Shown here: one piece after another, positions 23,729 to 51,902 of the stretch
How positions within the stretch are numbered: the stretch's first letter is position 1
Layout of the letters: every line of letters starts with the position of its first letter
Source of the DNA: Enoplolaimus lenunculus
Taxonomy: Eukaryota
DNA length: 64,000 nt
Assembly (NCBI GenBank): GCA_030248215.1
Contig: JASANG010001881.1
Coordinates: 434,001 to 498,000 of the forward strand
Direction: 5' to 3'
Notes under the pieces: model-generated
What the model saw: only the letters and a program-made list of their open reading frames with translations
Databases searched by the model: none
What the model was told of the DNA's origin: nothing
Made by a program: the position numbers and the translations under genes

Positions 23729-23887
23729 TTTAATTGCTGGTCTATAAAATACAATTTTTAGCGTTGATTGATTTTCGCCAAAAACAAACATATATGTGTC
23801 ACCCCGCATTTGTCGTTTGACAACTGTAAGCCTAATCGTAAAAGCCTTAGGCTTAAGCCTAAATCAATGCTAAATGCAGATCTTGGA

Positions 23888-27890: not shown

Positions 27891-30669
27891 TGATATATTG
27901 TCAGGGACACTATCTTTCTCTATTCCATAAAAGGTTGGCTCGATTTAGCGAATCTTTAGGTGCACATGGATCTACAGTGGCATTGGCATTAGTATCATTG
28001 TATAATTGGCATGGTTGATAACATTATTGTTATTATTATTATTATTATTGTCGTGGTTATTATTATTGTTGTATATTTTGTGTGCGTTTTCCCTTCTTTT
28101 TTGATCACACATTATAAGGGCCATTTTTTGGTTCGGCGTAAGAGTACGGACAAATATTAGAAATCGCATTCAGACCCAGGAAACCCCGACTAGAAAGTGC
28201 AAGACTGGATCGCATGTAGTTGAAAACACATGGCGGAGCAGATTGTCGAATCGTAATCGGTAATAAGGGTATCATATTAACAACACTAGCGTGGCTAATG
28301 TATTTAAAGAAAAGCTGTTGGAGTACGTACACTCAGTTGTGGCACCCGGGGTGTGCAGTCTCTGATACGTAGAAATTTCACCCAGCGTGAGGCCCTCTTA
28401 AATTGATGCTGTTCTATTCTATTATATCTGTCCTTTTTGTTAAGCTTGCTGTGTTGTCATGTTCATATGTACGTATATGTATTGGCTACTTTCCTTCTTT
28501 GTTTTTGGACAGCCACATAAGGCCTAAATTTTCGTCTAAGATCGGCTTGAACTTTTGTTCTGTTTATAGAAACTTGTGACACACCCCTGAATTACTATCG
28601 TCCTTTCTCACTCCTTTTCGACGTAATTTCGCCTCGGATTGTCGGAATATTTGACTAGAACGTTTTAATTGCACGCTGCACTGACTAGAGCGTGTTACCA
28701 GAGTGCTGACTAGATCCCTAACTACAGATAGCACTTTAAAATTTGACTAGATAACGACCGGACCAACAATTAAGAATTTAACAAAAGTACTAGTCTCCTA
28801 GCACTTCCTTTCTTAGCGTTTCCTCCTCTGAAGATTAAAATTTCAAAACCTCCCAGTTGAGATTTGCAAGGAAAACCTATACTTAATAAATGCAGCCATA
28901 ACAGGGGCGCCTCCCTGACAGGGACAAGGGAGCCCCGGAGACCCGTTGTACCTGCCCATCCGGATGGCCGAGAGGAGTCTCAAATTATGTGCGAGTCGAC
29001 TTGTTCAGGGGGTTTCCGAGTTAGCCTACTAGCTCCCCTAATGTGGCCCTTGGTGTACATAAGTATTAGTATTTAAAATCGCCTTATAATATAGTGTACA
29101 CTAGATAAGGTGTGTACACAAATAGTGAAATTTATGAGTTGAAGATTGCTGGACTACCTATAGCTGGAGGTAACGGGAGCGCGGGGACCCAGGTCCAGCG
29201 CAAGATGGTATTAGCCACCCTCACTTTAATTCCGGCCTCGATATGCTGCTTAAAGGGGCCTCTGCCATCAATCCGTTGCTTGAAAATCAAGTTCCCAGTA
29301 CCCGAGCCCCTAGACGTTTCGGACCGTACATCGGTTACAAGAATTCGCAGAAACTAAGATGAAAATTGCAGTCACGTGTAAATGGTAGAACCTCAGAGGA
29401 AAATGGAGAGAGTTGACGATAGGGAGCTCATCGACTAGGGTTAGGAAAACGGGAGATCGTCCGGCGTACGGAGCTAGGAAACCCACTCATACGAAAGCCG
29501 TCCTAAACATTTCGACCGGGCCCGAGTTGATTGTAAGGGAATCCGCACCTTTATTGCATGGATTCAGGGCGCCTACCCGCACAGTATACCCCTTTCAATG
29601 AGTCTCAAAATTTTAAAACGACTAGAATTTCTATTGCACTCGCTGAAAATGATTAATGTGTTTTGCAAAGCATGCGAAGCCCCGGTTTCAAAAATTTTCC
29701 ACTGATGGGTAGTTGCTCGCGTCGAGGGGTTTTGAGATACGAGTTAGTGGTCAGAATACAAAAGGGGAATGGGTTTCCCAGTTTTCACCACTAGATTTTC
29801 CTAAGGCAATCTTTGTTCCGGCCCCGCGACGAGATCAGAGTTTTACATAGACGTAGACTTGCACGGAGGCCACCCAACGGATACGTATCTGTGTCCCCGG
29901 TGCAGTAACCGCAGCCTGTAGTATATTTAACGTTTACACACAATCTTACCGTCCAGCCAGAAACTGCGCTTTGAAGGGGGAGCCGCACGCTGTTTGCATA
30001 AGGAGCGGCGATATTTATCAGAGAGGGTAAGGGTGTGTTGTGCACCATAAGGGAAAAAGAAAGAAACTGTCTATAACGACAGTTGAGGGTTTTGAAATTT
30101 TATAAATTTTGAATTTTAAGTTAAGCAACGCCTCGCCTCAGCCTAAGGGGGGTAGTTAGTTTAGGATTGGGGGGTAGTTTTGTTTTTGTGTTCAGGGTAC
30201 GCCAAGGGGATAGGTGAAATTATGTTTTGCGCAGGCGCAACAGTATTTCTAGGAGGTAATCAAGTGGAGCGATGGCCGTCTGTCTCTTAGGACAACCGGA
30301 TTTTAGGATTCGAGGTCCGTTGTTTTATAATTTCAGGTGCGGAGCTGGCGCTCTTGGGTTCGGCACACCGGGTTGGCCGAGTAAGCCGTCCCGGCTGCCG
30401 TTTTAGGTCAGAAACCAGGATCTCGTGAAAATTTTGAATTTCTTGACACTTAAACTTTGAAATTTCTTTTCATTTTTAGGCTTCCTGGGGTTCTATATTT
30501 AGTATCTGTTGTCTTGGCCTTCTGTTTTGGCCGAGAAAGCCACTCCGAACCTGCGCAGTGAATCGTACGCTTGAAATTAGCGGGAATGTAGGTTATGAGT
30601 ATTGGTCGCGAGTTGGGTTTTTAGGAAATTTTGACTGCTATTTTACGGAATATAGCACGTAGGCTGACA

Positions 30670-31790
30670 TTAGGCAATTTCCCTGCATCGTGCCGACTAA
30701 GAAAATCACCCCAATTATAGCCCGCGATGCGGTAGTCAAAAGTTATAGACATTTTTAAACTTCGAGATTTTGCGCGTGTGCGTCCAGAGGCCCGGCTCCG
30801 AAAAATGCAATTTTCACTTTTCCGGAATCGGATGCTAAAATTAGTACCATTCGACTCAGCTCGCTGAGCTGATTAAGAAAATCACCCCGAACCTTATCCG
30901 GAAACCAATAGTTCGAAAGTTATGGGCTCCTGAAGTTTTCGGGATTCAACGTGTACACGCTTTACGGATCCCGGGTCCAAAAATGCAATTTTCACTTTTC
31001 CGGGATCGGGTGCTAAATTTGGTATCAATCGATTCAGCTCGTCGAGCTGGTTAAGAAAACCACCCCAAACCCTGTACGCAAACCAGTACTTAAGGAGTTA
31101 TGGTCAATCAAAGATTTCAAAGATTTTGTGTATGTACACTTTTACGGATCGGATCCTGAAAAACGCGATTTCCACTTTTTCACGATCCACCTTAAATATG
31201 GGTACCGTTCGATTCCGCGCATCGCGCTGAGTAAGAAAACCACCCCAAACAGGTCTCGCAAATCAAAACTTAAAAAGTTACGATCATTTGAAAATCTTTT
31301 ATAATTTACGTGTACACACAAATTACGGATCCGGTCCTGAAAACGCGATTTCAACTTTTTCGAGCTATTGGGTTAAAATAGGTATCATTCGATTCGGCTT
31401 GCTGAGTAGAGCAAGAAAACTACCCCGAAAAGGTTCGCAAACGAATATTTCAAAAGTTAGGGTCCGTTGAAAATTCTGAAAATTTGCGTGTATATGCTTT
31501 ACGGAGCGAACCTCAAGAGCGCGATTTTCACTTTTACAGGACCCAACGTTAAAAATGGCACCGTTCGATTTCTCTCGTCTTTCTGGTTCAGAAAAACCCC
31601 CCTAACAATGTCCGCAAGTGAATACTTAAGAAATTATAATCAACTGAAGGCTTGGGACTTTTGGTATTTTAGGCGTGCGATTTTCACTTTTCTGAACTAT
31701 AGCATTAAGTTGGGTGTTGTTTTGAACTAGTTCATTGTTCTGGTTAGCAGCATCACATCGAGTAGGGCTCGCTGATATATATTTAGGAGA
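30670..31790. repeat. ~180-bp diverged tandem repeat (about 6 units) inside LTR U3; copy at ~47880-49000
   Basis: Recurring ATTTTCACTTTT...TTCGATTC...AAGAAAA(C/T)CACCCC blocks near 30810, 30990, 31170, 31350, 31525 and 31680. Confidence 0.8.
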
Positions 31791-32564
31791 TTATGGCTCG
31801 TCAGGTTTTGCAAACCCGCACGTGTATACTCTGCGGAGGCATGCCAAATAAGTGAAATCACTAGTTTTCTGGGTTCCTAAATTCAAGATCGTTACCCTCC
31901 AACTGAACTAGTCTGGCTGGTCAAAAGGACCACCCGGTGGGGTCCCTTGCTGATGACTATTTAACGAGTTGCCGCTGGTCAAGACCACCATTCTCATATA
32001 CTTACGCCGTCCCAGCACTGAGTATCAACTTAAGGGTTAGAATTTGACCCGTGGGGGGGGAACGTGTGTAAGCCAGTTCATTGCGTAGGTTGTGGCTTCC
32101 ATGAAAAGGTCAATTAGAACAGTACGCTTGTGGAAATCTAGGCTTTGAGTCCTCTACAAAATCTTAGGCATACTTGTTCTCATTTTATTCTTTAATTTTG
32201 TGCATTCTCTGTTTGTGCGTATATATGATCTGTTTTTATTGTTGTTTTGTGCTTTCGGTTTTTTTTGGACATTGCACCCCTTCCATATGCTCTACCTTCC
32301 CGCAGTGCAGAGTCTACCCTTTTTCAAATGCTTGTATAGTAATTGGACTCTGTAGAGCGAGTACATAAGATAAAAAAAGGGGAAGCCCCCATAACTAAAG
32401 CTGCACGTGGTGGTCATGTTTTAAAGGGGGTATGAGTGAATCTCGTCAAAGTTTTTTTTTTTGTCCCTGTACCATGTTGCATCTCTGTGTCCTGACTCCT
32501 TCCAGGGGTGACTAGGATTAGTCCCCATAACTTCCCGTTCAGAAATTACACGTTAAATCTTCAG

Positions 32565-32742
32565 CCAATCACAGGCTTTTAAGAGTTAATTCTGTTCTCG
32601 TTTTCGTATTGGTTAGTTATATCTCGGAGAGTCTCAGCCAATGAAAGGGAAGTACAGCGTCTGTTTCTGGGGCGCGCTGATTGGTCGAAATTTGAGCTCC
32701 GCGCACATATATAAGAGCGCTGCACAGGCTGAACATTCAGTT
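32565..32742 (+). promoter_or_regulatory. LTR Pol II promoter: four CCAAT boxes, TATA box and initiator (predicted TSS ~32739)
   Basis: CCAAT/ATTGG at 32565, 32608, 32638 and 32680; TATATAAG at 32708; TCAGTT Inr with its A 31 nt downstream of the TATA start. The same layout is in the 3' LTR (TATA at 49917). Confidence 0.7.
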
Positions 32743-33946
32743 CAGTTTCATATTTTTCGGTTTTCGCTCGCGTGCTCGAGCCGCGACAGCAAACCGATCT
32801 CCCTGCACACGGAGGCGACTTAGTGTGCACGGGAGTTTCGGGGCGCTGAAGCAAGCAAGGGGGGGGTATGTGCGTTGCGCACGGGGGTCAAAATTTTAAG
32901 AGGGGGCCCAGTTAGGATTTTCAGTTTTCACAAAGGGGGTGTGGGTAAAATTTTGGGCTAAAATTTGCCTGACGTTGGCGACAACGCAGGTACGAAAGTT
33001 TTTGTATAAACCTTGGGGTGGGGGAAAACTCAAAATCAGAAAACCTGCAAGGAGGCGCCATTTGTGCGACAATTCTAAAGAAAATTAGGCACAATTTAGA
33101 TTGACAAATACGTTCGCAGGATTGATTGTCAGTGCGGTAGGGAGGCCAATTCAGCCTAATGCTAAGCATTTAGGATATGGCAACTAAAAGAGCTGAGGCC
33201 TACCGTCTAGAAAATTTCAATATACCCTGTGATTTGAGACGATTCTAGCCAGGCCCCAATGATCTAAGCTTGTGGCAAGGCCCGTCCAGTTGACAATCAA
33301 ACTGCTGAATGTACAGCCTGTGAAAATTTAAGCTTAAGGCTATGGAGCCGAGCTACACTCGGAAACAGACACGGCATAAGAGAGTAAACCTATAGAAAAC
33401 TTTTCTACAAAAACCTAATAAGTTTAAGTCTCGTGGTCTAATGTGAAACTATTTAGGCCCCGGTGCCCTTGTCTAGATCTCGCGGTTTTGACACGTGCAG
33501 CTTTTCAGAAAGGATTTAAAACAATCAGCAGTGAGCCCGACACAACAGCAAGTACAAGGGGAGCAAGGCATAAGGCGTATACTTTCGCATGTAGACTCGC
33601 CTATCGGTATACATAGGGATACATGCGGATAAGTAGCTGCGTTTCGGGCTCACTGTCCTAGGATATAACCTATTCTGCCGGGCAACACCAAAGACTCTTA
33701 AGGACATAGCTGTCGGTAAGACGAGCAATTAAGGCCTAGTTAATGCACGAGCCGTAGAGTAGAATAGTTGTGGTGAATTCTCAAATCAACAATTTTTCTT
33801 CTAGCGAATTACTATTTAACATTTTGAGTAGTCAGTAGATTGCTACCAAAATTCACTGCAATCGACGTAAATTTCATCGGTGCAATTCTATCACATAAGG
33901 TATACATTAAAAAGTGTCTGCGCTGTACATAGCTGTACAAACTCAT

Positions 33947-33952
33947 AATAAA
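33947..33952 (+). terminator. Candidate LTR polyadenylation signal (R/U5 boundary near 33970)
   Basis: AATAAA downstream of the predicted TSS, present in both LTRs; assignment is positional only. Confidence 0.35.
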
Positions 33953-34591
33953 CCAAAACTTTAACTCGAGTTCAGTCCTGAACCTTGAGCGCTCAGTTGA
34001 TTCCTGGCCTAAAGGCCATGGCTAAAATTTAGATAAAACTTAGAATTAAAAGAGGCTCAAACTTTTGCGTGAACGTGAAAAATTCCTGACCATCAGAGTC
34101 TCGACAAATGAATAACAGCCCTGGTTCGAATCAGTGGCAAGTCAAATCAATGAAAAAACCTCAAAGGCTAGGATCGATCCGCCTTTCTGTCAAAACGGTC
34201 TATGACCAGGTAAAGCAAAACCCGGTTGAACCAACCAATTTCTAGGACTAAGACTAAGGTTAAGCCATACCCATGACCGAGTATCAATAAGTTTAACCAT
34301 GAGAAAATGTTGAGGGCACACAGTTGTACTAAAATCCACGGAGAAAAAGCTAACTGTTACTGGTGCGGCCCACTTACACGCACTCGGGGTTCACTAGAGC
34401 TTAGAGCATAGGCAGGCTTAGGCGTATGACGATGTCGGGATTTTGTGACTCTCAAAACCTGATATCACGCCGGGGGACCGTCATCCTCTAGGCAAGTAGC
34501 TTACTTTGGCAGATCCACGGCCACGAACACCCGTGAGAGTATCATCTCGGATTCGTCCGCAGGGATACTCGTTGATCGTACCCGTAACACT

Positions 34592-34605
34592 TGGGGGCTA
34601 CTCCG
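34592..34605 (+). promoter_or_regulatory. Primer binding site, tRNA-Pro-like
   Basis: TGGGGGCTACTCCG lies 2 nt after the LTR end; it matches the classical tRNA-Pro PBS TGGGGGCTCGTCCG at 12 of 14 positions. Confidence 0.7.
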
Positions 34606-37359
34606 TGGAGAGAATTTTCTGTTTTCTGTTGTTCCTTAATTGAATTTCTTAAATTAACTTGCCTTACAGGCAATCTTTAAACTGTTAAATTGCTCGACCA
34701 ATTTTGACAAGTAGCCAAACCTAGACCATTTCCCCCACCTTATTGATTCAACTGTGTGCCTGCAACTATTCCTCAGAAAGTTTTGGTTTATAAGTATTAA
34801 TTTAATTAAGCTGTTTAAGTTTGGGGACCTCTCGCACAGGACTAGGCAAAACTCCGAGAGGTCTGCATTTCGCACACCTACTCTATATACTGGTGTTTTA
34901 AAATTCTGTTTTCGCAATTCTAAAACTAGCTGCTTCAGGTTTAGGCAAAATTCAAGCAGCTATGGCTTTCGCCCACCAAACTTAAGCTATATTAATCGAT
35001 TGTTGCAACTATACTAAGCAGGCTGCCCTCCTTAAATAAACTCTGGGCAGCCTATAATTACTCTGAATGGAATCGTACGTACTATTGTTTTAACCTTGCT
35101 ATGTACATATAGTGAACTTGTTGGGAGTTTGTTGAGCGTCCACTAACGAGTCCCTCCAAGGTTTTTAGCCCAAAATTCACAAATTCTGTGGCACAACGTA
35201 AAATTTCCATTGTGCTATCTAAGCTTTGTTCACCACCCTCAACCGGACGCCATTTGCTCGAATTGAGCACATGGTCCAAAGCTTGACAAGCTCCCAACAT
35301 CTTATGTAAGGCGCCTTACCCTCCCTTAGACCGGTTTCTTTTTCAATTACCGGGAAAATTTTCTTGAGCAAAACAATTACTCACACTATTTCGAAACCCG
35401 ACCTTCGATGGAAGGGATGCACAAGAACACTTACATAACCCGGGGAACAGTTGCGGTCGACTGCGGTTTCACGGCTATCTCACAATCAACTTGAGACTAA
35501 GATTACACATATTACAGCGTGCACCTTTCGACTGGGTGTATCGACAACATGCTAAAACCACACCTTTAGCCCAGAATAAAAGTAACAGCTCTAGCAAAAG
35601 TGTATAACCCCTTTGAAGCTATACCTTTTTGCCAATAACGAAAATCCTGCTTTTGGAAAACCCGCCCACATGGCACATTGTGCCTTCTCCCCAACGGATT
35701 TACGGGAAAATATGTGCACCACATTAGATAATTTTAATGCCTCCGTAGGGCTTAATACGTTTAGTCCGAAAAAGACTTCAAACTTCATCTAATAAGCGTG
35801 TTGCACATTTCCCGAATTTCCTAATTGAAATGAGTGCTCAGAGTTGGTAGCCCTTGTCAAATAGGCAACTAAAGCTGTTAAATACTGCAATTTTGCGGAG
35901 TCCCATTTAGTTCCTTTGAAATTTATGGGAAGTGGTAACTCACACCCCGCGCCAGAACCTACTGTTGTCCAACCCCAGTTACCCTAACTGGTCGGAACAG
36001 ATAGAATCAAGTCTGAGCACTCAAGCCAACGCGCAAAATGAATGCGGCGCCCATTCAATACGTACCTGAACAAAAATCTTAAAGCATATGAACATGTTTG
36101 ACGAGAGGAACTTGGAGGATTAGCTCTCTCTCCCAAATTACTTTGAATAGTCATTAAATTGAACCACTTTCGCAAGTCCAATTCACACCCCCAAGTTCCT
36201 CTCATGTTAGAGTATGCGCCACTAAAATTAAAAAAAAAAAAAAAAAGGAGATCGGATGCTGGGCCCAATTGTCCAAGCCACATCCGACACTACTAAATTT
36301 TATCCACAAACATGTACACTGCCGCCAAGGAAACTAAAATTCCCAACGAGAATTACTACCTACCCCGGAACACAAGTGTACCCATAATACAACCTGCCAG
36401 GAATTTAGCCTTAAAATCATAAAATGCAAGCGCATTAAGCTATAAATAAAAATTCAGTCCCTAGCGAATGTGCAGGTTGAACGCTCCCAATTTCAATCAA
36501 GGAGCTAAAATCAGATACTCCTGTCAGCTAATGTTAATTTAATTACAAATCCGTACCCTACGACAGGAAAGGAGTACTTGTGTAGTGCGCAGACACCGGA
36601 ACTAACATCGGTGGACGTTTACTTACCAGGTTTGCAGAACAAATCACCCCAAACTGTTATAATACTACACCTTGCCCCTACCCAACTCACCTCAGGATTC
36701 TGGTACGCGGTGAACCAAACCCTGGCAGCCCATAACGCTGTGTTCGACGCCACTTCGCAACCGGGCGGGATTTGATCACTCCCAACGGGTTTCGAGGGAA
36801 TGTACCTCCTTAAGGTCGGCCAGCCTATCGGGGGAAATTCAGGCTAAGAACCATGGTTGTGAAGGGGATGCCCGGTTTCCTGTAACCGGGTACCTTGCTA
36901 CAAATCACGTTGTGCGTTAAATTTGGAATAGTATACTCAATCATTTACCTCTGGGTACCCCACCACCCACAGTGCCCAAACCCCATTCGTAGTTGCCCAA
37001 AATTTAGGACACCGTGTATGCAAGTAAATAGTGTAGACCGCCTGCATGAAACACAACAAACATGTACCCCCTGCCTAGCAATACTCAGGAGTCCGTAAGC
37101 AAACAGAGAAAAATGGATGGAATAAAAGCCCGAGGGACGTATAGAACTTAAAACTAATATTGTTTTGCTGTCTTCAAATTACGGGTGACATATCTAATTT
37201 CTGAGCTTACGGAATCCTGGTACGTATCCCTAAAACCAGGTGAAACAAGCCCATAATTGTCGTGAGGGTGTTACCGCACTCAAACGCAAAATCTCGAGAC
37301 TTGACTTAACCGGCGACAACCAACTGAACTGAACTCACGCGGAAACCTGGAATTCTCCA

Positions 37360-40300
37360 AGAATGTTTGTATTTCCGGTGTAAAAAACGCGTAATTTACA
37401 GGCGGAGATCTGTATTGTTGGAGAGGACAGAGTGGAAACGTTTAAAATCAACAAGAGGGCGTCAGGTTTTTCAAATCCCAACTTACCACCAGTTGGACAA
37501 TCTACCCTCCATCCCCAGGGCCAAGTCGCTAGGCCCTGGATGTACAAAATCTGACCCCCTCTTTTCCACAACTCCAATTAACTGGGTGAAGGAATGTGAC
37601 CACGGGAAAGGAGCATCCACGGGTCACCGCACAGTTAATTCGGCCCCTATCGGAGATTCTAGCCAGTCTCGACTCGTGAAGTTAGGGGAATTTATCGAGC
37701 GAGAGGCAGAATTCCGAGGCCACACCACCCCATAAATTTTACGCAGCGTTTTTCAAAATCGGTGTGGTTTAGGGTAAAATTTTCTTTAATTTGAATTTGA
37801 AGTATTGAATAGTTGGACGAGTTTGATCGTTTAATTATTGACGGCACAGACGAGGAGGGGCAGGACGACCAAAATTGTCATTGACACCACTTTTCAGTAA
37901 ACGGTATGGGACACTTTTCAATGGGATACATAATTCTAAGGTGGTATTAGAATTACCCACAGGTATGTTGTTCCCTTCCCATCTGCACGCCCTTGGGCTC
38001 GAGCTAAGGGAATCACACACATGATAAGCCGAACAAATTACTTTCAAGGCAAATTCAGTCCTGTCAACCCGAGAGTGACCGTAAAAATTTTCTTGAAGAC
38101 CAAGCTCAACACGTTCAGTGGTTGCGCGCTCTGAGGGTTTCGATTACCAATCTGAAATTCCTAGCAACCACCCGGACAGATTGACACCGGTAGAGTCGTA
38201 TTATTTGTGTTGTTATGAAGTTTGAATTTGCTGTACCGGAGAACGCCGGACGTAGGAAACGTGCCGAGTTAGTAGGGGTCAGCCCAGTTGGTCCATTGGG
38301 GCACGAGATAACGCACCCTCAGTCGGTAGGGGTGGGCAGCTCCGTGTTACCCATGGGGAACTGTGATTTTATTGATTTGATGAATTGAATGAAAAATTTG
38401 ACTTTTAAATTCCCCACGGGCATAAAAACCCAAATTTAAACTCTCAATCAAAAGAGTTGAGGATAAGTGTCCGACTAAAATCAAAATTTTATAAGGCTTT
38501 CAAAATGTCGGCACAGAACCAACATTAAGCTCTACCTAGAGCTATCTCTGCGATTTCATTGACATACCATTCCCCCACTTAAACGATTCAAATTAGTCCT
38601 CGAGGACTTGAATCCAGTTGTGTGGCCTAAACCTCCCGTCAGGACTAAAATCAAAGAAGCGCCACTCGACAACCAATCTCTTACCGAATAAATTACTGAT
38701 ACAATGCGAACACATTTGTTGAATTTAGGAATACGAAAATCACTTTGGAACATCGGTTGGAATTGGATATTAATTTGAGCATTGAGACAATACCCGAAAT
38801 TTGTTGCCTGGACATGGAAGCTTTTCGACATGAATATGACTACGGATGTAACTTTTGACCAATTAGAGCACTCCAAAAATAAGGACAGTTTTAGTTGTGA
38901 ATTCAGTGAATTATATGCGCCCACCTTTACCCATTTCGGATTATAGCTAACGATACTGTACTCCCCGCCATGTTGAGATTTAGATGACTTTTACAAGTTT
39001 TTCCCCGTTGTCTCGTCGCACTGAGCATTATACCCTTTGTACAGGGTATCTTGCAAATTCTTAGTAGATTCCCCTCACACCGTTTTGTGGAATAGGTCTA
39101 ACACCCGCGCCCTGTGTAATTAAACCTAATGTAACGACCTTACGCCCTGTATACATAGACCTTACGCGATGATTATTTCGAAGTTTACCCCTGCTCTACC
39201 CTGCCAATTGTTGACAGGATTTTCCCGGCACTGTACGAAGATGCCTGGGCCCAATGTAGATAAGCCCCAACCCAGTTATGTAGAAACTTTGAAGCGAAGC
39301 GTTATTCAACTGTATCATAGCAATCCCTAATTGTACCATAGCCAATTGTACATATTGAAGAACGGCATTGGTCCTTTCCCAGCATTTTGGCATGTTAGGC
39401 CCTCTTAAAAATAGAAAATACAAAAAATATAATAATAAAATCCAATAAAAAACAAACAAAAAAGGAAATTACGCCAGTAATGATCGTTTGTAACTGCTCC
39501 CGCGGTCGAGTTCCCCGCTCACCAGAGGTGGAAAAGATCCAGAAATCTCAGCTGTATCACACTAAGTAAATAAAATTAGAACCAACGTTAGATTTTGCCT
39601 GCCATCTTTTTTGAGACGCGTGATCGTCTGTATTTTGAACAAAGAACAAAATAAAAATAAATAGAAAATTTATAAAAAAAAACAAAACAAAGAAAAATAA
39701 AAATTCTACGTGTAACTAATAATTACTTTCGAACGCCACCTTTCACAGCCCTAAAAGCACATCGTATACGCATTATAGCCCTGTCGGTCACTGACTTCCG
39801 GCCTTCCTAATATAGGCACAGCACACACTTACCAGGATTAAGACACAAATCGTGCTAACCCCTTGTAGCGAACACCGCAACTAAGGAGCTTTGAACACTA
39901 AAGCTCCTGTAACGACCACTTTAGGACACCGCACCGATCTGAACAATTTTCTCCAGTCAGTCTTAAGGCCCCTAATCGAACGATTGCCGATCTGTAGCCG
40001 GTAATAAACCGACTAATTTCAAATACCGAACTTACTAAAGTAAAATAGAATGGCAAGTAAAACTCCCAGCGCCCCCACATTTTTGGATTTCAATCCAATT
40101 TAGGATTCTGCTGAAGTGTCAGGAACCAAGCGACCCATAATGATTGAACAACCCTCTTCGTTGCCCTCGACCATAAGGATTGCCTCTTCCCCCTTCTCCC
40201 GATCAAAGTATTGGTAAATCTCTAAAAACGCCTTACAGTTCTCTGTTGCACTGTATCCGTGTTAACATGTGTACAGTGTTATTTTGGGTATAACACTTGT

Positions 40301-41450
40301 GAGACATATAATTAAGAGGACACTTAAGAGAGCTTGTGGGATTAAACTGTCGGTTCCGGCTTCGGTGAATGTATATAAAAATTGTACAGAACCGACTTTT
40401 GGGCTTTTGCCTTGCACTTTTGTGCTCAGAAGACCCTTTGCAAGCTGGATCATTAAAACCGCTTTTGAAAAGCGGCTCTCGCAGCCGCAGAATGCACTAA
40501 TTAAGCCTACCTCGCTCATAACGAAAACTAATTAAGCAACGAAAAGATAGATAATTGACTAAGCAAGGTTTCTAAGCTCAAAAATAACCGTGACACCGCT
40601 CAGCAGTCACCAAAGAATGGGGTATCACCCAAGGTAAAAGTAGCCTTACTACTCAATCACATCGATACCTAGCTCCCCTAGTGTCACCCCGCTATATTAC
40701 TAAAGGGCATAGAGTGATCAGACTCAGAACTACCCAATTAAGTGGTGTTCGTGGGACAGAATCCTCTCCCTAAATCATTCACAGGGAACTGAGAGTACAA
40801 GCATGGGTGACAATAAGAACCATAACAAGCGCAGGTAGTGGAGTTACCGAACACTTAGTGTCACTAAATTTTGCTGCTACGTATGAAAGCTCGAGAGCAA
40901 AATGGTGTGTATACAGACGTAACTCATGATCAACGGGTAACGAAAATTCTGGCTCCATCCTAAAATCGGTTGACCATGCACCACCTACTAACCTATTATT
41001 CAAAAATTTACTGCTAAGAATGATCCTATAACTCACTAATGTCCCCTCCCTTAGATTTTAGCTGCTAATTTCTTGCACTCATTACCGTTTCGCAAATTTC
41101 TAATAAGCAATTTCTCTCTGTTAACAGGCAGTGCACTCAACGTGCAGTTAACAACAACGCTTGTGAAGAAATAATTTCAAGATGCACTTAAGAAAGGGTG
41201 CTGACCAAGTCTTGTCAATCCAGCTCGCAACGGTTGTACAGAACCGATTGTGAATAAACCAGCTCGGGTTTTTCCCATGCACCCCTTTTGGTGCAAAGGA
41301 GCCCTTTTAAGAGCTGGACCAGTAAACGTTTTTTTGAATGCGACTCTCGTAGTCGCAGTATGGTAGGCATGAGAGGTCCTTTTTCTTAAATTCAATAACC
41401 CCACACGAAAAAGGAAACCCTAACCGAATAGTAAAAGCCCTGTAGTGAGA
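37360..41450 (+). pseudogene. Heavily decayed gag-pol relic (zinc knuckle, protease, RT, RNase H, integrase)
   Basis: YFRCKKR..LQAE.C knuckle ~37370; QIDTG 38177-38191; RT-like FLVD ~39058, IDL..(D)YF 39155, MP...APT 39241, VHIEE 39348; FTALK...DF 39742; KEL 39883; ILGIT...CTE and GLLP...PF 40281-40440; WGIT..SS(P)YY 40618; VGMRVL...P...SP 41363-41445. Order is correct and spacing plausible, but there are many stops and frameshifts. Confidence 0.65.
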
Positions 41451-42180
41451 AAGAGAAACATCGAGAATACCAGTGCAAGCGCCGAAACTAGGCAGAAAAG
41501 ACTGCTATGACGGTCTCCAGGCAGGGCGCAGGAACCCGAGGTGTGGAAAATCTTAAGCCAGAATATCACACTAAGGGACAGAGCATTAGGACTTAATAGG
41601 AACCGAACGTATAATTGGTAGATCTACGATTTAGGATGTAAAATCGTCTTGAAATCCCTCGGAAACTGTGCAAGCGGAGAAATCTCACGCGAGTTGGATG
41701 TCATAAGGAGATATCATTTGAATTCTAGATCCTAACTCTACTCAAGAGATTGCGGCCCAACTTAAGAATATTTACCTGCTAAGCAAACTGTTGTAGGTCA
41801 CTTGCAAATCACATTGTCCCCTCCGTTCCCCGTCCCCATGCCTTTCCCCTGGCACTTCGGCAGAACTAGGGTGCCCTGAGCTATGTGTGCTAGCACCTTT
41901 ATAAAGATATAGTCTGCTGTATAAAATTATATTCGCCACATCAGATCCTGATAAGGCTTCAGAGAGCCACCAAAATTTGAACATATAACCGGCCTACCCG
42001 TTAAGTCGCCCAAAACTCCGAAACTCCAAAAAATTAAAGTAACCGGCTCCGGGCTGTATCACCCGCCGCCGCGTTAATGGCCGGATATTTCCTCAGCTTA
42101 TTCATATCCTCATGGTAAACTTTTGTTTTCTTGAATGTCATAACTAACCTCGCCTTGAAAAATGAATTATAGCAAAAGCT

Positions 42181-42577
42181 CATAGCAACAACAACAACAA
42201 GTAGCAGCAACAACAACAACAAGTAGCAGCAACAACAACAACAAGTAGCAGCAACAACAACAACAAGTAGCAGCGACAACAACAACGACCAGCGGCAACA
42301 GCAGCAACAACGTCAACAATAGCAGTAGCAGCAGCACCACAACTGCCGCTACTACAACAACAACAACAAGAGCAACAACAGCAGGGGCAACTCCACAACA
42401 ACAACAATCGAAACTGCAGCAACGCCTGCAACAAAAACAAACAACAACAACAACAACAACTCCAACAGCAACAACCACAGCAATCACAACAACCGCAACT
42501 ACAACACCAAACCAGCCGCAACCACCACAACAACAACCACCACCACCACCACCAACATCAAACACAACAACAGGGTC
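42181..42577 (+). repeat. (CAA/CAG/ACC)n low-complexity tract directly upstream of the 534-aa ORF
   Basis: Visible trinucleotide-type repeat containing no ATG; an in-frame TAG at 42326 means the ORF frame is not open through the whole tract. Confidence 0.9.
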
Positions 42578-44182
42578 ATGGCTGATTTCCGAGGCTACAA
42601 CAACCCTGAGAACGGCGGTGAGGATGGCTTCAGTGAAGAAAGCCAATCCGGACGCCGTGCCGAGGTTTTCGGCGATGACCCCGTCCCAGAGTACTCCCTG
42701 AACCCCCGCTACGGTCCCCCAGCCCCCCGCGACACCACACGCCCCGCCCTCCGACTATCCGCCCTCCCCGGCACCGCGCAGGTCCTCAGCCTGCTATTTG
42801 TTGGCTTGGCGTTCCAAACGCCACTTGGCGCGGCCTGGTGCGTCATCCAGGTCCTTGGCGCGGCGTGGCATTATATTCGCCACGACCCGACTGCAACCGC
42901 CAGCTGGATGATGGCGACCGCGTCGGATTGCCGGGACTATGTCTGTATAGGCATCCCGCCTCCCGGCGATACGCTCCATCGTCTTGGACGTGAGACGATG
43001 TTAGAGCCGCTTGTGTACGCTCTGACGTATCACAAGTTCGCCGCTCCGGGGATGCGGGAACATCTCCGCGGGATCTCAGAGTATCAGGTCCTTTACTGCG
43101 ACCCCTGGGATCCCGTACTCGGCACCGGCGAGGACGTAGACGGAGTCCAGAACACTCTGGAACTCGTTACCCAGTACAACAACATCGCCGGCCGCGCCAT
43201 TGAGGACCTCGCGCGGCACTATGATCATGGCAGCCAGTACTATCGGCGCCACATCATAGTCGGCGACGAGTCAGCCTACCCGCTGTGGGCTGAGTACTAC
43301 GGCGACCCGGATGTCGCTGTAATCGCGTTCCCCGGCGCCGACATACCGACCCTGTGCCGGATCGCGCGTCTGGTAGCCACCCCTTTGGTATTCCGCATCA
43401 CGATCTGCGGTGGCTACCACTCCGTCTTCGCGTGGACAGGGCGTACTTCCAACCCACGGGACGACGGCGCATACTACCACGAGCAGTCGGGGTCAGTCAA
43501 CAGTCGGTACTTCGAAGAACTCATCACCGACCAACTGAACCCTGGCACCGTGGCGTACTCAGTGTATGCGCACATCTCGGAGCTCGCCTCCGAACTTCAA
43601 GACAGCCCGCGGGTCACCCTCCTGCCCCCGATGCCCCTCAGCGAGCTGTCCTGCACCGCCCGCGCCGTGCTCGAAGGTTACCTGGCAATGGTGGAGTTCT
43701 ACTCACATGGAGCTCCCTACTTCTACCATTGCAGCCTGGATTACCTCTTCCACGGCGTCCCCGACAGTGAGCTCGCTGAGCGCTACCTGCACACTGGGGG
43801 ACCGCTACCACTACCGCAGCTGGTCAAGAAGATGCGGCCAACACTCGACCTGCCCTTCAGGCGAGACCTGTGCGTGCGGCAGCTCCCCTGGGCCTCCCCG
43901 TCGTCCAACCAGCCCGCCCTTCCCAGCAACATTCCTTTGGCCCCCGGACAACTCACACAGTCCGAGCGGGTGGAAGAACATTTGCGGCGAATGGCGGAAG
44001 AAGCTGGGCCGCCGCGCGAGGGTGATCGAGAGGATCCGGTGGAAATCCCACCTGAAGACCCGGTAGTCATCACCCCCGTGCAGAGAGCAAGATGGAGGCG
44101 CGAGTTGGGGTTACGCCGATTAAGGGCGTGGAACGCTGAACTTATGGCGATGTACAATCGTTTTGGCTCCCGGGAAACTTAA
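42578..44182 (+). CDS. Intact 534-aa accessory ORF of the LTR element; putative SGNH/GDSL-fold domain with N-terminal hydrophobic segment
   Basis: Longest ORF in the window, markedly GC-richer than its flanks. Motifs IIVGDES (aa ~226-232), VIAFPGADI (~248-256), ITICGGYHS (~274-282), VTLLPPMP and RYLH (~402-405) are ordered like SGNH blocks I, II, III and V. Confidence is high for the ORF and moderate for the fold. Confidence 0.8.
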   Translation: MADFRGYNNPENGGEDGFSEESQSGRRAEVFGDDPVPEYSLNPRYGPPAPRDTTRPALRLSALPGTAQVLSLLFVGLAFQTPLGAAWCVIQVLGAAWHYIRHDPTATASWMMATASDCRDYVCIGIPPPGDTLHRLGRETMLEPLVYALTYHKFAAPGMREHLRGISEYQVLYCDPWDPVLGTGEDVDGVQNTLELVTQYNNIAGRAIEDLARHYDHGSQYYRRHIIVGDESAYPLWAEYYGDPDVAVIAFPGADIPTLCRIARLVATPLVFRITICGGYHSVFAWTGRTSNPRDDGAYYHEQSGSVNSRYFEELITDQLNPGTVAYSVYAHISELASELQDSPRVTLLPPMPLSELSCTARAVLEGYLAMVEFYSHGAPYFYHCSLDYLFHGVPDSELAERYLHTGGPLPLPQLVKKMRPTLDLPFRRDLCVRQLPWASPSSNQPALPSNIPLAPGQLTQSERVEEHLRRMAEEAGPPREGDREDPVEIPPEDPVVITPVQRARWRRELGLRRLRAWNAELMAMYNRFGSRET

Positions 44183-45112
44183 TTGTTTCCTGCCTCACGG
44201 CAACTGGAGGTATCTATGGGCCGAGATACCCCCGGTCGGGAAGCCACATGATTCGCTAAACGCGCTGACACTGTAGGACCACCCATAAACTTGCGGCCCC
44301 AGATAATTAGGTTATAGACAGCAAACCTTGCGCTTAGCATGCCGTAAAGAGTTTCAACGCTGCATCTCCCTTTCCCTTAGAGCTAGGCTCGAGTCTAGCA
44401 ACAGTGTCAGTGCCTTGGACTTGGCTCACGCAACACAGGCGCAGGGACGTACCGTTCAGGAGATAAGGGTTGACACAAATTGCCAAATCTAAAAATCTGA
44501 GAGAAGGAGAAGGACATTGCTCAGGGGAGCGTTGCTTTCGTTGCTTTTATGAGCTGCATACGCATAGCAAACAAACTAAGGCCCAGAGATGTTTCTAATG
44601 TGTCAGAAGCCCAAACCTGGACGGATCGCACCCCTGTAACCCAGCTTAAAATTGTATCAAATGTGACATTTTACAGACTGCGATAGGACGCTATTGGAAG
44701 CTGGGTGCAGCCCGTGTATGCGCAATATCTTTTTACCGGATGCGTCGCTTAGCACATTGGGGCAGATTTATAGTCGGCCGGGCCATAGAAAGCTCGCTGC
44801 CTTTGAACTAGGCAAACCCATTACATTTTCTAATATAAGGAACAACCGCCCATTGCCATCGCCGGATTATTGGCACCTATAATGAAACTCCATGTGCGCA
44901 TATAGTGTTGTTGTTGTTGCTCAATCACTCTTGTTCAATACTTGTATCGTATTTCGGGTATATATGTATATGTTTTGTGGTTGTTGGAGTCGAGTGGAAG
45001 GAAGTTGACTTGGTGTGTAGGCATAAATTTAGGACAACCAAGAAATACGCCAGCCATAAACCCACAAGGGATAAGGGTTAACACGAAATATCCAAATTAA
45101 AATTTTATGAGG

Positions 45113-48100
45113 TGTCAGGGACACTATCTTTCTCTATTCCATAAAAGGTTGGCTCGATTTAGCGAATCTTTAGGTGCACATGGATCTACAGTGGCATTGG
45201 CATTAGTATCATTGTATAATTGGCATGGTTGATAACATTATTGTTATTATTATTATTATTGTCGTGGTTATTATTATTGTTGTATATTTTGTGTGCGTTT
45301 TCCCTTCTTTTTTGATCACACATTATAAGGGCCATTTTTTGGTTCGGCGTAAGAGTACGGACAAATATTAGAAATCGCATTCAGACCCAGGAAACCCCGA
45401 CTAGAAAGTGCAAGACTGGATCGCATGTAGTTGGAAACACATGGCGGAGCAGATTGTCGAATCGTAATCGGTAATAAGGGTATCATATTAACAACACTCG
45501 CGTGGCTAATGTATTTAAAGAAAAGCTGTTGGAGTACGTACACTCAGTTGTGGCACCCGGGGTGTGCAGTCTCTGATACGTAGAAATTTCACCCAGCGTG
45601 AGGCCCTCTTAAATTGATGCTGTTCTATTCTATTATATCTGTCCTTTTTGTTAAGCTTGCTGTGTTGTCATGTTCATATGTACGTATATGTATTGGCTAC
45701 TTTCCTTCTTTGTTTTTGGACAGCCACATAAGGCCTAAATTTTCGTCTAAGATCGGCTTGAACTTTTGTTCTGTTTATAGAAACTTGTGACACACCCCTG
45801 AATTACTATCGTCCTTTCTCACTCCTTTTCGACGTAATTTCGCCTCGGATTGTCGGAATATTTGACTAGAACGTTTTAATTGCACGCTGCACTGACTAGA
45901 GCGTGTTACCAGAGTGCTGACTAGATCCCTAACTACAGATAGCACTTTAAAATTTGACTAGATAACGACCGGACCAACAATTAAGAATTTAACAAAAGTA
46001 CTAGTCTCCTAGCACTTCCTTTCTTAGCGTTTCCTCCTCTGAAGATTAAAATTTCAAAACCTCCCAGTTGAGATTTGCAAGGAAAACCTATACTTAATGG
46101 ATGCAGCCATAACAGGGGCGCCTCCCTGACAGGGACAAGGGAGCCCCGGAGACCCGTTGTACCTGCCCATCCGGATGGCCGAGAGGAGTCTCAAATTATG
46201 TGCGAGTCGACTTGTTCAGGGGGTTTCCGAGTTAGCCTACTAGCTCCCCTAATGTGGCCCTTGGTGTACATAAGTATTAGTATTTAAAATCGCCTTATAA
46301 TATAGTGTACACTAGATAAGGTGTGTACACAAATAGTGAAATTTATGAGTTGAAGATTGCTGGACTACCTATAGCTGGAGGTAACGGGAGCGCGGGGACC
46401 CAGGTCCAGCGCAAGATGGTATTAGCCACCCTCACTTTAATTCCGGCCTCGATATGCTGCTTAAAGGGGCCTCTGCCATCAATCCGTTGCTTGAAAATCA
46501 AGTTCCCAGTACCCGAGCCCCTAGACGTTTCGGACCGTACATCGGTTACAAGAATTCGCAGAAACTAAGATGAAAATTGCAGTCACGTGTAAATGGTAGA
46601 ACCTCAGAGGAAAATGGAGAGAGTTGACGATAGGGAGCTCATCGACTAGGGTTAGGAAAACGGGAGATCGTCCGGCGTACGGAGCTAGGAAACCCACTCA
46701 TACGAAAGCCGTCCTAAACATTTCGACCGGGCCCGAGTTGATTGTAAGGGAATCCGCACCTTTATTGCATGGATTCAGGGCGCCTACCCGCACAGTATAC
46801 CCCTTTCAATGAGTCTCAAAATTTTAAAACGACTAGAATTTCTATTGCACTCGCTGAAAATGATTAATGTGTTTTGCAAAGCATGCGAAGCCCCGGTTTC
46901 AAAAATTTTCCACTGATGGGTAGTTGCTCGCGTCGAGGGGTTTTGAGATACGAGTTAGTGGTCAGAATACAAAAGGGGAATGGGTTTCCCAGTTTTCACC
47001 ACTAGATTTCCCTAAGGCAATCTTTGTTCCGGCCCCGCGACGAGATCAGAGTTTTACATAGACGTAGACTTGCACGGAGGCCACCCAACGGATACGTATC
47101 TGTGTCCCCGGTGCAGTAACCGCAGCCTGTAGTATATTTAACGTTTACACACAATCTTACCGTCCAGCCAGAAACTGCGCTTTGAAGGGGGAGCCGCACG
47201 CTGTTTGCATAAGGAGCGGCGATATTTATCAGAGAGGGTAAGGGTGTGTTGTGCACCATAAGGGAAAAAGAAAGAAACTGTCTATAACGACAGTTGAGGG
47301 TTTTGAAATTTTATAAATTTTGAATTTTAAGTTAAGCAACGCCTCGCCTCAGCCTAAGGGGGGTAGTTAGTTTAGGATTGGGGGGTAGTTTTGTTTTTGT
47401 GTTCAGGGTACGCCAAGGGGATAGGTGAAATTATGTTTTGCGCAGGCGCAACAGTATTTCTAGGAGGTAATCAAGTGGAGCGATGGCCGTCTGTCTCTTA
47501 GGACAACCGGATTTTAGGATTCGAGGTCCGTTGTTTTATAATTTCAGGTGCGGAGCTGGCGCTCTTGGGTTCGGCACACCGGGTTGGCCGAGTAAGCCGT
47601 CCCGGCTGCCGTTTTAGGTCAGAAACCAGGATCTCGTGAAAATTTTGAATTTCTTGACACTTAAACTTTGAAATTTCTTTTCATTTTTAGGCTTCCTGGG
47701 GTTCTATATTTAGTATTTGTTGTCTTGGCCTTCTGTTTTGGCCGAGAAAGCCACTCCGAACCTGCGCAGTGAATCGTACGCTTGAAATTAGCGGGAATGT
47801 AGGTAATGAGTATTGGTCGCGAGTTGGGTTTTTAGGAAATTTTGACTGCTATTTTACGGAATATAGCACGTAGGCTGACATTAGGCAATTTCCCTGCATC
47901 GTGCCGACTAAGAAAATCATCCCAATTATAGCCCGCGATGCGGTAGTCAAAAGTTATAGACATTTTTAAACTTCGAGATTTTGCGCGTGTGCGTCCAGAG
48001 GCCCGGCTCCGAAAAATGCAATTTTCACTTTTCCGGAATCGGATGCTAAAATTAGTACCATTCGACTCAGCTCGCTGAGCTGATTAAGAAAATCACCCCG

Positions 48101-51100
48101 AACCTTATCCGGAAACCAATAGTTCGAAAGTTATGGGCTCCTGAAGTTTTCGGGATTCAACGTGTACACGCTTTACGGATCCCGGGTCCAAAAATGCAAT
48201 TTTCACTTTTCCGGGATCGGGTGCTAAATTTGGTATCAATCGATTCAGCTCGTCGAGCTGGTTAAGAAAACCACCCCAAACCCTGTACGCAAACCAGTAC
48301 TTAAGGAGTTATGGTCAATCAAAGATTTCAAAGATTTTGTGTATGTACACTTTTACGGATCGGATCCTGAAAAACGCGATTTCCACTTTTTCACGATCCA
48401 CCTTAAATATGGGTACCGTTCGATTCCGCGCATCGCGCTGAGTAAGAAAACCACCCCAAACAGGTCTCGCAAATCAAAACTTAAAAAGTTACGATCATTT
48501 GAAAATCTTTTATAATTTACGTGTACACACAAATTACGGATCCGGTCCTGAAAACGCGATTTCAACTTTTTCGAGCTATTGGGTTAAAATAGGTATCATT
48601 CGATTCGGCTTGCTGAGTAGAGCAAGAAAACTACCCCGAAAAGGTTCGCAAACGAATATTTCAAAAGTTAGGGTCCGTTGAAAATTCTGAAAATTTGCGT
48701 GTATATGCTTTACGGAGCGAACCTCAAGAGCGCGATTTTCACTTTTACAGGACCCAACGTTAAAAATGGCACCGTTCGATTTCTCTCGTCTTTCTGGTTC
48801 AGAAAACCCCCCCTAACAATGTCCGCAAGTGAATACTTAAGAAATTATAATCAACTGAAGGCTTGGGACTTTTGGTATTTTAGGCGTGCGATTTTCACTT
48901 TTCTGAACTATAGCATTAAGTTGGGTGTTGTTTTGAACTAGTTCATTGTTCTGGTTAGCAGCATCACATCGAGTAGGGCTCGCTGATATATATTTAGGAG
49001 ATTATGGCTCGTCAGGTTTTGCAAACCCGCACGTGTATACTCTGCGGAGGCATGCCAAATAAGTGAAATCACTAGTTTTCTGGGTTCCTAAATTCAAGAT
49101 CGTTACCCTCCAACTGAACTAGTCTGGCTGGTCAAAAGGACCACCCTGTGGGGTCCCTTGCTGATGACTATTTAACGAGTTGCCGCTGGTCAAGACCACC
49201 ATTCTCATATACTTACGCCGTCCCAGCACTGAGTATCAACTTAAGGGTTAGAATTTGACCCGTGGGGGGGAACGTGTGTAAGCCAGTTCATTGCGTAGGT
49301 TGTGGCTTCCATGAAAAGGTCAATTAGAACAGTACGCTTGTGGAAATCTAGGCTTTGAGTCCTCTACAAAATCTTAGGCATACTTGTTCTCATTTTATTC
49401 TTTAATTTTGTGCATTCTCTGTTTGTGCGTATATATGATCTGTTTTTATTGTTGTTTTGTGCTTTCGGTTTTTTTTGGACATTGCACCCCTTCCATATGC
49501 TCTACCTTCCCGCAGTGCAGAGTCTACCCTTTTTCAAATGCTTGTATAGTAATTGGACTCTGTAGAGCGAGTACATAAGATAAAAAAAGGGGAAGCCCCC
49601 ATAACTAAAGCTGCACGTGGTGGTCATGTTTTAAAGGGGGTATGAGTGAATCTCGTCAAAGTTTTTTTTTTTGTCCCTGTACCATGTTGCATCTCTGTGT
49701 CCTGACTCCTTCCAGGGGTGACTAGGATTAGTCCCCATAACTTCCCGTTCAGAAATTACACGTTAAATCTTCAGCCAATCATTGGCTTTTAAAAGTTAAT
49801 TCTGTTCTCGTTTTCGTATTGGTTAGTTATATCTCGGAGAGTCTCAGCCAATGAAAGGGAAGTACAGCGTCTGTTTCTGGGGCGCGCTGATTGGTCGAAA
49901 TTTGAGCTCCGCGCACTATATAAGAGCGGTGCACAGGCTGAACATTCAGTTCAGTTTCACATTTTTCGGTTTTCGCTCGCGTGCTCGAGCCGCGACAGCA
50001 AACCGATCTCCCTGCACACGGAGGCGACTTAGTGTGCACGGGAGTTTCGGGGCGCTGAAGCAAGCAAGGGGGGGTTATGTGCGTTGCGCACGGGGGTCAA
50101 AATTTTAAGAGGGGGCCCAGTTAGGATTTTCAGTTTTCACAAAGGGGGTGTGGGTAAAATTTTGGGCTAAAATTTGCCTGACGTTGGCGACAACGCAGGT
50201 ACGAAAATTTTTGTATAAACCTTGGGGTGGGGGAAAACTCAAAATCAGAAAACCTGCAAGGAGGCGCCATTTGTGCGACAATTCTACAGAAAATTAGGCA
50301 CAATTTAGATTGACAAATACGTTCGCAGGATTGATTGTCAGTGCGGTAGGGAGGCCAATTCAGCCTAATGCTAAGCATTTAGGGTATGGCAACTAAAAGA
50401 GCTGAGGCCTACCGTCTAGAAAATTTCAATATACCCTGTGATTTGAGACGATTCTAGCCAGGCCCCAATGATCTAAGCTTGTGGCAAGGCCCGTCCAGTT
50501 GACAATCAAACTGCTGAATGTACAGCCTGTGAAAATTTAAGCTTAAGGCTATGGAGCCGAGCTACACTCGGAAACAGACACGGCATAAGAGAGTAAACCT
50601 ATAGAAAACTTTTCTACAAAACCTAATAAGTTTAAGTCTCGTGGTCTAATGTGAAACTATTTAGGCCCCGGTGCCTTTGTCTAGATCTCGCGGTTTTGAC
50701 ACGTGCAGCTTTTCAGAAAGGATTTAAAACAATCAGCAGTGAGCCCGACACAACAGCAAGTACAAGGGGAGCAAGGCATAAGGCGTATACTTTCGCATGT
50801 AGACTCGCCTATCGGTATACATAGGGATACATGCGGATAAGTAGCTGCGTTTCGGGCTCACTGTCCTAGGATATAACCTATTCTGCCGGGCAACACCAAA
50901 GACTCTTAAGGGCATAGCTGTCGGTAAGACGAGCAATTAAGGCCTAGTTAATGCACGAGCCGTAGAGTAGAATAGTTGTGGTGAATTCTCAAATCAACAA
51001 TTTTTCTTCTAGCGAATTACTATTTAACATTTTGAGTAGTCAGTAGATTGCTACCAAAATTCACTGCAATCGACGTAAATTTCATCGGTGCAATTCTATC

Positions 51101-51797
51101 ACATAAGGTATACATTAAAAAGTGTCTGCGCTGTACATAGCTGTACAAACTCATAATAAACCAAAACTTTAACTCGAGTTCAGTCCTGAACATTGAGCGC
51201 TCAGTTGATTCCTGGCCTAAGGGCCATGGCTAAGATTTAGATAAAACTTAGAATTAAAAGAGACTCAAACTTTTGCGTGAACGTGAAAAATTCCTGACCA
51301 TCAGAGTCTCGACAAATGAATAACAGCCCTGGTTCGAATCAGTGGCAAGTAAATTCAATCAAAAACCTCAAAGGCTAGGATCGATCCGCCTTCCTATCAA
51401 AACGGCCTGTGGCCAAGTGAAGCAAAACTCGGTTGAACCAACCAATTACTAGGACTAAGGCTAATGTTAAGCCACACCCATGACAGAGTGTCATTAAGCC
51501 TAACCATGAAAAATAGTTGTGCGCACATAGTTGTACTGAACTCCACGGAGAAAAAGCTAATTGTTACTGGTGCGACCCACTTATACGCACTCGGGGGTTC
51601 ACTAGAGCTTAGAGCACAGGCAGGCTTAGGCGTACGACGATATCGGGATTTTGTGACTCTCAAAACCTGATATCACGCCGGGGGACCGTCATCCTCTAGG
51701 CAAGTAGCTTACTTTGGCAGATCCACGGCCACGAACACCCGTGAGAGTATCATCTCGGATTCGTCCGCAGGGATACTCGTTGATCGTACCCGTAACA
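45113..51797 (+). repeat. 3' LTR (6685 bp)
   Basis: Copy of 27899-34589; followed by the ATAT TSD. Confidence 0.95.
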
Positions 51798-51902
51798 ATA
51801 TTACATAACATATATAAAAAATATATATTTAGTACTGAGAATGCGGTGTATTGGGGCAGTTTTTAATTTTCTCTGGGGAGGTCTAGCTGCAGCAACCCCT
51901 TA

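Follow-up and report, generated by a model that had tools for sequence, protein, structure and literature searches.

A predicted NADAR-SGNH fusion protein, probably catalytically degenerate, under purifying selection in a giant-LTR element without detectable gag-pol

NADAR and SGNH domains are each already known from retroelements. The Vesta LTR elements and Athena of bdelloid rotifers have been described as carrying a GDSL/SGNH ORF3 (PMC5408684), and YbiA-family NADAR domains were reported in the Pol of Ectocarpus Gypsy and in ORF1 of oyster Tx1, in an account that states the role of retroelement NADARs as unknown (PMC12477816). For esterase-bearing ORF1 proteins it has been proposed that RNA is bound via Arg-rich motifs, and the lipid-binding esterase of ZfL2-1 is given a pI of 10.8 (PMC3905857). 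NADAR domains likewise occur in nidoviruses (PMC11848433) and are used in RNA processing by the nematode protein SNA-3 (PMC9303266); the function of animal NADARs has been stated to be unclear (PMC11125620). The CERV protein of the C. elegans element Cer1 contains a dead GTPase-like domain and was reported to be required for the export of Cer1 RNA (PMC10309623). The pair of NADAR and SGNH exists in sequence clusters of the Atlas; we found no published account of it, and the subscription literature, Repbase or the supplements of PMC12477816 might contain one. Most ORFs in the env position of LTR elements are without an assigned origin, whereas the one described here appears to be traceable to an invertebrate NADAR-SGNH module.

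The window analysed in this study is a stretch of 64,000 nucleotides from Enoplolaimus lenunculus (contig JASANG010001881.1), to which all positions refer. It contains an LTR element with the following features:

27895..27898, no strand: left copy of the target-site duplication, ATAT, 4 bp, abutting the 5' LTR
27899..34589, plus strand: 5' LTR, 6.7 kb, with TG...CA ends, 99.0% identical to the 3' LTR
34592..34609, plus strand: PBS-like sequence, starting 2 nt past the 5' LTR with TGGGGGCT
34590..42160, plus strand: interior without coding capacity detectable by frame and homology searches
42184..42572, plus strand: CAA/CAG-rich repetitive leader, just 5' of the ATG of the ORF
42578..44182, plus strand: intact 534-aa ORF under purifying selection
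44499..44514, plus strand: pure purine run, ~600 nt 5' of the 3' LTR
45113..51797, plus strand: 3' LTR, 6.7 kb, paired with the 5' LTR
51798..51801, no strand: right copy of the target-site duplication, ATAT, 4 bp, abutting the 3' LTR

The paired TG...CA LTRs, the target duplication and the PBS-like site (beginning TGGGGGCT, which we take to be tRNA-Pro-like) identify the element as an LTR retrotransposon. The LTRs are direct repeats, alike over 6692 aligned columns except for 56 mismatches, the first 6 kb accounting for 21 of these and the last ~610 bp for 35, with a cluster at ~33980-34440 versus ~51190-51650. The insertion thus appears to be young, with one end that looks recombined, and the patch at the 3' end of the LTRs suggests that another copy has contributed to it by recombination or gene conversion. 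Each LTR also contains about five diverged tandem units of ~178 bp (30791-31648 and 48002-48859), possibly an enhancer array, and another tandem array, with units of 155-175 bp (27181-27838), adjoins the insertion site. No clear polypurine tract adjoins the 3' LTR at 45112; a pure purine run is found at 44499-44514. The region 44461-44530 holds a degenerate echo of the sequence preceding the 3' LTR (14/15 match to 45070-45084, E 0.06) and then this purine run, which together are possibly an older PPT/LTR boundary.

Stops in the interior number 129-142 per frame of 2523 codons, about even across the six frames, and the longest stop-free stretch is 144 aa (102 aa in the LTR; both regions have 43-44% GC). 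Searches of the 7.5-kb interior as six whole frames and as 36 chunks gave no retroelement family in Pfam, and phmmer against the PDB with three frames gave no retroelement match. The best tblastn result of four RT/pol probes had an E of 0.56; these probes were picked by one RT motif, the two that were checked being one LTR-type pol and one caulimovirus-like sequence, and Bel/Pao was covered by Pfam only. No remnant with homology to Ty3/gypsy PR-RT-RH-IN or gag was detected in the interior, and Rfam yielded 0 matches over 27000-52500. Fragments near 38500-39300 and 41200-41400 that resemble RT or integrase by eye were rejected, as neither the Pfam chunks nor the RT/pol probes gave them statistical support. 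The original prediction had pictured an ORF that was kept while gag-pol decayed; the interior holds no detectable coding remnant of such a decay. Judged from its sequence, the copy at 27899..51797 is a non-autonomous LTR element without detectable gag-pol, and from the near-identical LTRs and the non-coding interior we infer that it was moved by enzymes supplied in trans; homogenisation of the LTRs through gene conversion is the alternative. In LARD-type non-autonomous LTR elements the LTRs are very long and the long interior is non-coding, and these elements are described as coding for nothing. The element shares both characters with LARDs and differs from them by one selected ORF.

Elsewhere in the window, an inverted-repeat element at 16894-18054 surrounds a predicted tRNA-Val(GAC) (17231-17303) and has related copies near 12300-12578 and 61440-61523; it is possibly a MITE- or SINE-like family. 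A 297-codon open frame on the minus strand (22970-23863), rich in Ser, Arg and Tyr and without a Pfam match, is likely a host exon. The nematode telomere repeat, TTAGGC, is found 74 times and forms 7 tandem pairs, compared with 32 and 0 for TTAGGG, which points to a nematode as the likely host. A dispersed family of small repeats with TTAGGC arrays is found at 19029-19106, 23887-24588, 25870-26074, 53028-53157 and 54391-54577. A minisatellite with units of 19-20 bp lies at 53445-53958.

The ORF at 42578-44182 on the plus strand runs intact from ATG to stop, encodes 534 aa and occupies the 3' (env) position of the LTR element, as had been claimed. The original prediction had also noted its high GC content, which is ~0.59-0.71 across the ORF versus 0.43-0.44 elsewhere in the element and amounts to 66, 48 and 72% at the three codon positions (GC3 72%). 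The CAA/CAG leader, ~390 nt long, ends in CAG/G 5 bases 5' of the ATG, the context of which is good. Poly(CAA) sequences are known as translation enhancers; the leader recalls such an enhancer, or alternatively a splice acceptor, and might account for how an ORF lying 8 kb into the element comes to be translated. Three parts of the product are distinguished:

42791..43234, plus strand: predicted degenerate NADAR (YbiA-like) domain, aa ~72-219, from profile alignment
43247..43867, plus strand: predicted SGNH-fold domain, aa ~224-430, from alignment with P0001 and a predicted model
44084..44131, plus strand: Arg-rich C-terminal motif, aa 503-518, from sequence, a candidate RNA-binding or nuclear-localisation peptide

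An exhaustive phmmer search of 1,835,955,588 representative proteins returned a single match to the ORF product, the 374-aa protein P0001 (E 4.2e-5), in which a NADAR domain (Pfam E 3.2e-19) precedes a GDSL_2 match that stays below the curated cut-off (E 7e-4). P0001, which sits on a 1,858-bp contig, keeps the motifs SVEH, E-x-x-P-x-D-x-x-WG, GDS, GGTN and DGIH. In the Atlas, P0001 lies closest to clusters of eukaryotic NADAR proteins, one most often from nematodes (0.96) and one most often from annelids (0.91); a GDSL/NADAR cluster, 21% of whose members have zf-CCHC, is also near (0.80) and is a lead only. The pairwise match between the ORF product and P0001 covers aa 145-293 and spans the domain junction. 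When shuffled sequences were scored against P0001, 0/2000 reached the local score of SGNH blocks I-III (83), and 0/2000 that of the C-terminal half of NADAR; the N-terminal half of NADAR was marginal (97/2000), and neither the C-terminal half of SGNH (194/2000) nor the block V region (881/2000) was significant. The five SGNH-like motifs of the original prediction were all recovered in order (IIVGDES aa 226-232, VIAFPGADI 248-256, ITICGGYHS 274-282, VTLLPPMP 346-353 and RYLH 402-405), and by these tests blocks I-III are more than chance, while the C-terminal half and the equation of RYLH with block V are weaker. The second domain, NADAR, was absent from that prediction. A NADAR profile including P0001 aligns with aa 72-219 over 135 columns (HHalign 80.5%, E 1.3e-5). 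Without P0001 the profile consists of 15 phage or plasmid NADARs, themselves picked by likeness to P0001, and matches aa ~143-193 weakly (HHalign 35%, E 4e-4; HMMER E 0.003); its HMMER score was reached by none of 1000 shuffles, 300 of which were scored.

Neither the ORF nor its halves had a direct family match in Pfam or NCBIfam. Word-based searches for homologues gave 0/7998 and 0/2297 candidates, and only P0001 itself among 1212; an Atlas search with aa 200-440 returned no informative match, nor did scans for related loci in metagenome, viral and genome contigs. The best PDB phmmer match, to a ROK kinase (E 0.033, 31 aa), was taken as chance, and there was no PDB match to NADAR or SGNH. By the alignments, the ORF product is homologous to an invertebrate-type NADAR+GDSL protein and derived from the NADAR and SGNH superfamilies. 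Apparently intact NADAR+GDSL fusions occur in nematode and annelid Atlas clusters, one of them with zf-CCHC, and these clusters may represent an undescribed retroelement module.

Structure prediction had been named as a test of the SGNH fold, and its outcome is favourable at low confidence. The single-sequence model had a pLDDT of 34.5 and its Foldseek search was uninformative either way. In a two-sequence model (ORF and P0001; mean pLDDT 38) the alpha/beta core reached 50-70. SGNH hydrolases were its best Foldseek matches in the PDB (E 2.3e-4), the VIA structure comparison gave a Z of 9.7 with an rmsd of 4.5 over 182 aligned residues and SGNH proteins in all of the first 12 rows, and in BFVD most of the top matches that bear a name were hydrolases, lipases and SGNH proteins. 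This evidence is partly circular because the model used P0001. In the NADAR half pLDDT was <50, and the structure matches were taken up by the SGNH half. We thus treat aa ~224-430 as a predicted flavodoxin-like SGNH fold, on a low-confidence model, and aa ~72-219 as a NADAR domain predicted by profile alignment.

The ORF is under purifying selection across its genomic copies. These copies are many and diverged and come from three DNA runs of one study with at most two samples; the variants counted are the best supported, not random, ones, and some contig joints across the ORF are ambiguous. At 43080-43430 (351 nt), the best 40 of 59 variants comprise 30 silent and 10 replacement changes, with 30 at third positions and no stop or indel. 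The resulting pN/pS of 0.11 (0.31 if the other 19 were all replacements) bears out the selection that the original prediction had assumed. Over 42570-45100, 23 of the best 40 of 335 variants fall in the ORF, 14 of these 23 being silent (p ~0.001 with transition weighting), and all 12 indels listed (of 27) lie 3' of the ORF stop. Some autonomous element could be the source of the diverged copies, and it is possible, though rather doubtful, that only an unseen autonomous partner is under selection, the non-autonomous copy having gained its 3' ORF recently by recombination and carrying it as a passenger. Such an origin would fit the GC content of the ORF, sharply unlike that of the interior, the recombination-like LTR patch, and the rotifer TelKA2n, described as a non-autonomous family that retains an env-like ORF (PMC5408684). 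It fits less well with several silent changes (43447, 43456 and 43522) at sites where all aligned contigs differ from the window copy and which likely changed on its own line, although the changes at 43574 and 43904 are not silent, and with a contig, 82% alike, in which the ORF is joined to the same 3' flank. As it concerns where selection acts, this explanation is compatible with every molecular role proposed for the ORF.

Both the NADAR and the SGNH site have likely lost catalytic residues. The catalytic map of the P. nicotianae NADAR enzyme assigns the distal ribose to E43 and E125 and gives K50, R79, W89, R93, D130 and W133 as pyrophosphate residues (PMC11543638). These positions were transferred to the ORF through 8BAU and the profile alignment. 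By this transfer, E125 corresponds to Y173 and W133 to L181, and aa 88-102, near the E43 position, contain no acidic residue; kept are R79 (R138, in LGR), D130 (D178) and also KF. Y173, D178 and L181 are untouched by the best 40 of 59 variants at 43080-43430. In the SGNH domain, block I reads G229-D230-E231, with Glu at the position of the nucleophile Ser and S232 next to it, and in block III GGYH is aligned to GGTN of P0001, so that H281 takes the oxyanion Asn position; the altered catalytic block of the original prediction is thereby supported. The block II Gly is kept (G253, in AFPG aligned to AFSG of P0001). Block V, R402-Y-L-H405, has a His without an Asp three residues earlier; the alignment there is not significant, and H405 is likely the block V His. 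As far as sequence can tell, the ORF product is homologous to both superfamilies, yet lacks the catalytic residues expected of either.

One extra residue after GD relative to P0001 makes the register of block I ambiguous and S232 an alternative nucleophile. The SGNH pocket might therefore be a rewired enzyme, with E231, H281 and H405 as a Glu/His/His metal site or with S232 as a shifted nucleophile, a proposal that we consider unlikely. It draws on the longer spacing after GD, on the positions of the three residues in blocks I, III and V, lining the SGNH active site, and on their stability: codons 230-232 (D230, E231, S232) are unchanged among the best 40 of 59 variants of the catalytic window, though E231 may yet vary among the other 19, and even where contigs are no more than ~80% alike (loose ends at 43419), H281 continues to be read as His. 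However, block V has no sequence anchor (881/2000 shuffles), the Asp before H405 is missing, the predicted model is too poor for site geometry, and the adjoining NADAR site is degenerate too.

The pattern in the NADAR half, where the equivalents of the pyrophosphate contacts R138 and D178 are kept while the ribose-contact Glu residues are lost, could be that of a reader or decoy which covers element nucleic acid bearing ADP-ribose or a cap, thereby blunting host defence. NADARs recur in nidoviruses (PMC11848433) and, as reported, in retrotransposons (PMC12477816), and in nematode SNA-3 NADAR domains are used next to the cap-binding complex, key residues being absent from one of them (PMC9303266). 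We nevertheless judge this improbable: with Leu at the W133 equivalent and no clear match for K50 the pocket may not bind at all, and our literature search found no host ADP-ribosylation defence against retroelements. Quite unlikely is the boldest combination, in which a gag-pol-less giant-LTR element keeps a selected double pseudo-enzyme whose dead NADAR pocket both reads and shields element nucleic acid that is ADP-ribosylated or capped, and whose SGNH pocket is rewired to a Glu/His/His metal site; this would reveal in an animal a defence against retroelements, based on ADP-ribose, that has yet to be described.

Both predicted domains are acidic, and only aa 501-534 are basic (9 K/R, 3 D/E). 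Direct binding of RNA or lipid by the SGNH domain itself, as first suggested, is doubtful because of its acidity (14 K/R vs 24 D/E) compared with the basic ZfL2-1 esterase. The hydrophobic stretch at aa 68-100 is present, though only marginally so (its best Kyte-Doolittle mean over 19 aa is 1.79, at aa 72-90), and since most of it is aligned to the start of NADAR, it is probably not the membrane-targeting segment that had been envisaged. The ORF has no N-glycosylation sequon and no hydrophobic C-terminal segment, its N-terminus is acidic and not signal-like, and its one furin-like site lies inside the Arg-rich tail. Lacking a sequon and a C-terminal anchor, the product is probably not an env. 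An env substitute anchored by aa 68-100 and equipped with a lipid-binding pseudo-esterase would suit the env position of the ORF, the Kyte-Doolittle value at aa 72-90 and the report that liposome binding by the ZfL2-1 esterase withstands active-site mutation (PMC3905857). In the same report ZfL2-1 binds liposomes via basic surface charge, whereas the SGNH domain of the ORF is acidic, and together with the missing env hallmarks and the overlap with NADAR this makes such a substitute very unlikely.

With a probability of about 0.5, we propose that the ORF encodes a selected NADAR-SGNH fusion, with both activities likely lost, that acts as a non-enzymatic adaptor for element RNA. The enzymes that moved the element copy would have come in trans, the element RNA would be bound by the Arg-rich tail, the two acidic pseudo-enzyme domains would recruit host or helper proteins, and the NADAR pocket would perhaps still hold a pyrophosphate-bearing ligand via R138 and D178. 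Such an adaptor might aid the export, packaging or silencing escape of element RNA, as CERV does for Cer1, and might also act in a Rev-like manner through the Arg-rich tail. These roles are proposed by analogy with CERV, with the Arg-rich motifs of esterase-bearing ORF1 proteins and with the NADAR domains of SNA-3. In one distant copy no alignment was obtained for aa ~489-534 (joint 44043-44252), so that this tail is not necessarily conserved. That an ORF is strongly selected inside an element without detectable gag-pol suggests that non-autonomy does not prevent an element from bearing an accessory gene of use, so that it need not be a pure parasite. Because the role of NADARs in animals and retroelements has been stated as unknown, a selected, catalytically degenerate version may offer a direct handle on NADAR ligands.

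Among the described systems, Vesta and Athena share with this locus an SGNH-fold extra ORF in the env position, and the GDSL derivatives of Athena-L are, like the ORF, reported without catalytic residues. Vesta ORF3 differs, since it keeps its catalytic residues and stands beside gag-pol, and no NADAR is reported for it (PMC5408684); it was moreover reported as mostly neutral within a genome, whereas the ORF described here is strongly selected with both sites apparently degenerate. The NADARs of Ectocarpus and oyster are likewise carried by retrotransposons, but are described as highly conserved and fused to Pol or located in ORF1, while that of the ORF is degenerate, lies in a separate 3' ORF and is fused to SGNH. 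ZfL2-1 ORF1p resembles the ORF product in having an SGNH fold within a retroelement and an Arg-rich motif, and Oskar OSK is a non-catalytic SGNH (PMC3905857); the esterase of ZfL2-1, however, is active and basic and belongs to a non-LTR ORF1, in contrast to the acidic, degenerate domain of the ORF. CERV is, as far as its description goes, an LTR-element accessory protein of similar size (~520 aa), one of whose domains is predicted to be an alpha/beta dead enzyme; it has exons in common with gag and its domain is GTPase-like, not NADAR or SGNH. The likeness drawn here is a functional analogy only. Homology is found with the invertebrate NADAR+GDSL protein P0001, which has the same domain order and matches the ORF product across the domain junction, and which keeps the catalytic motifs.
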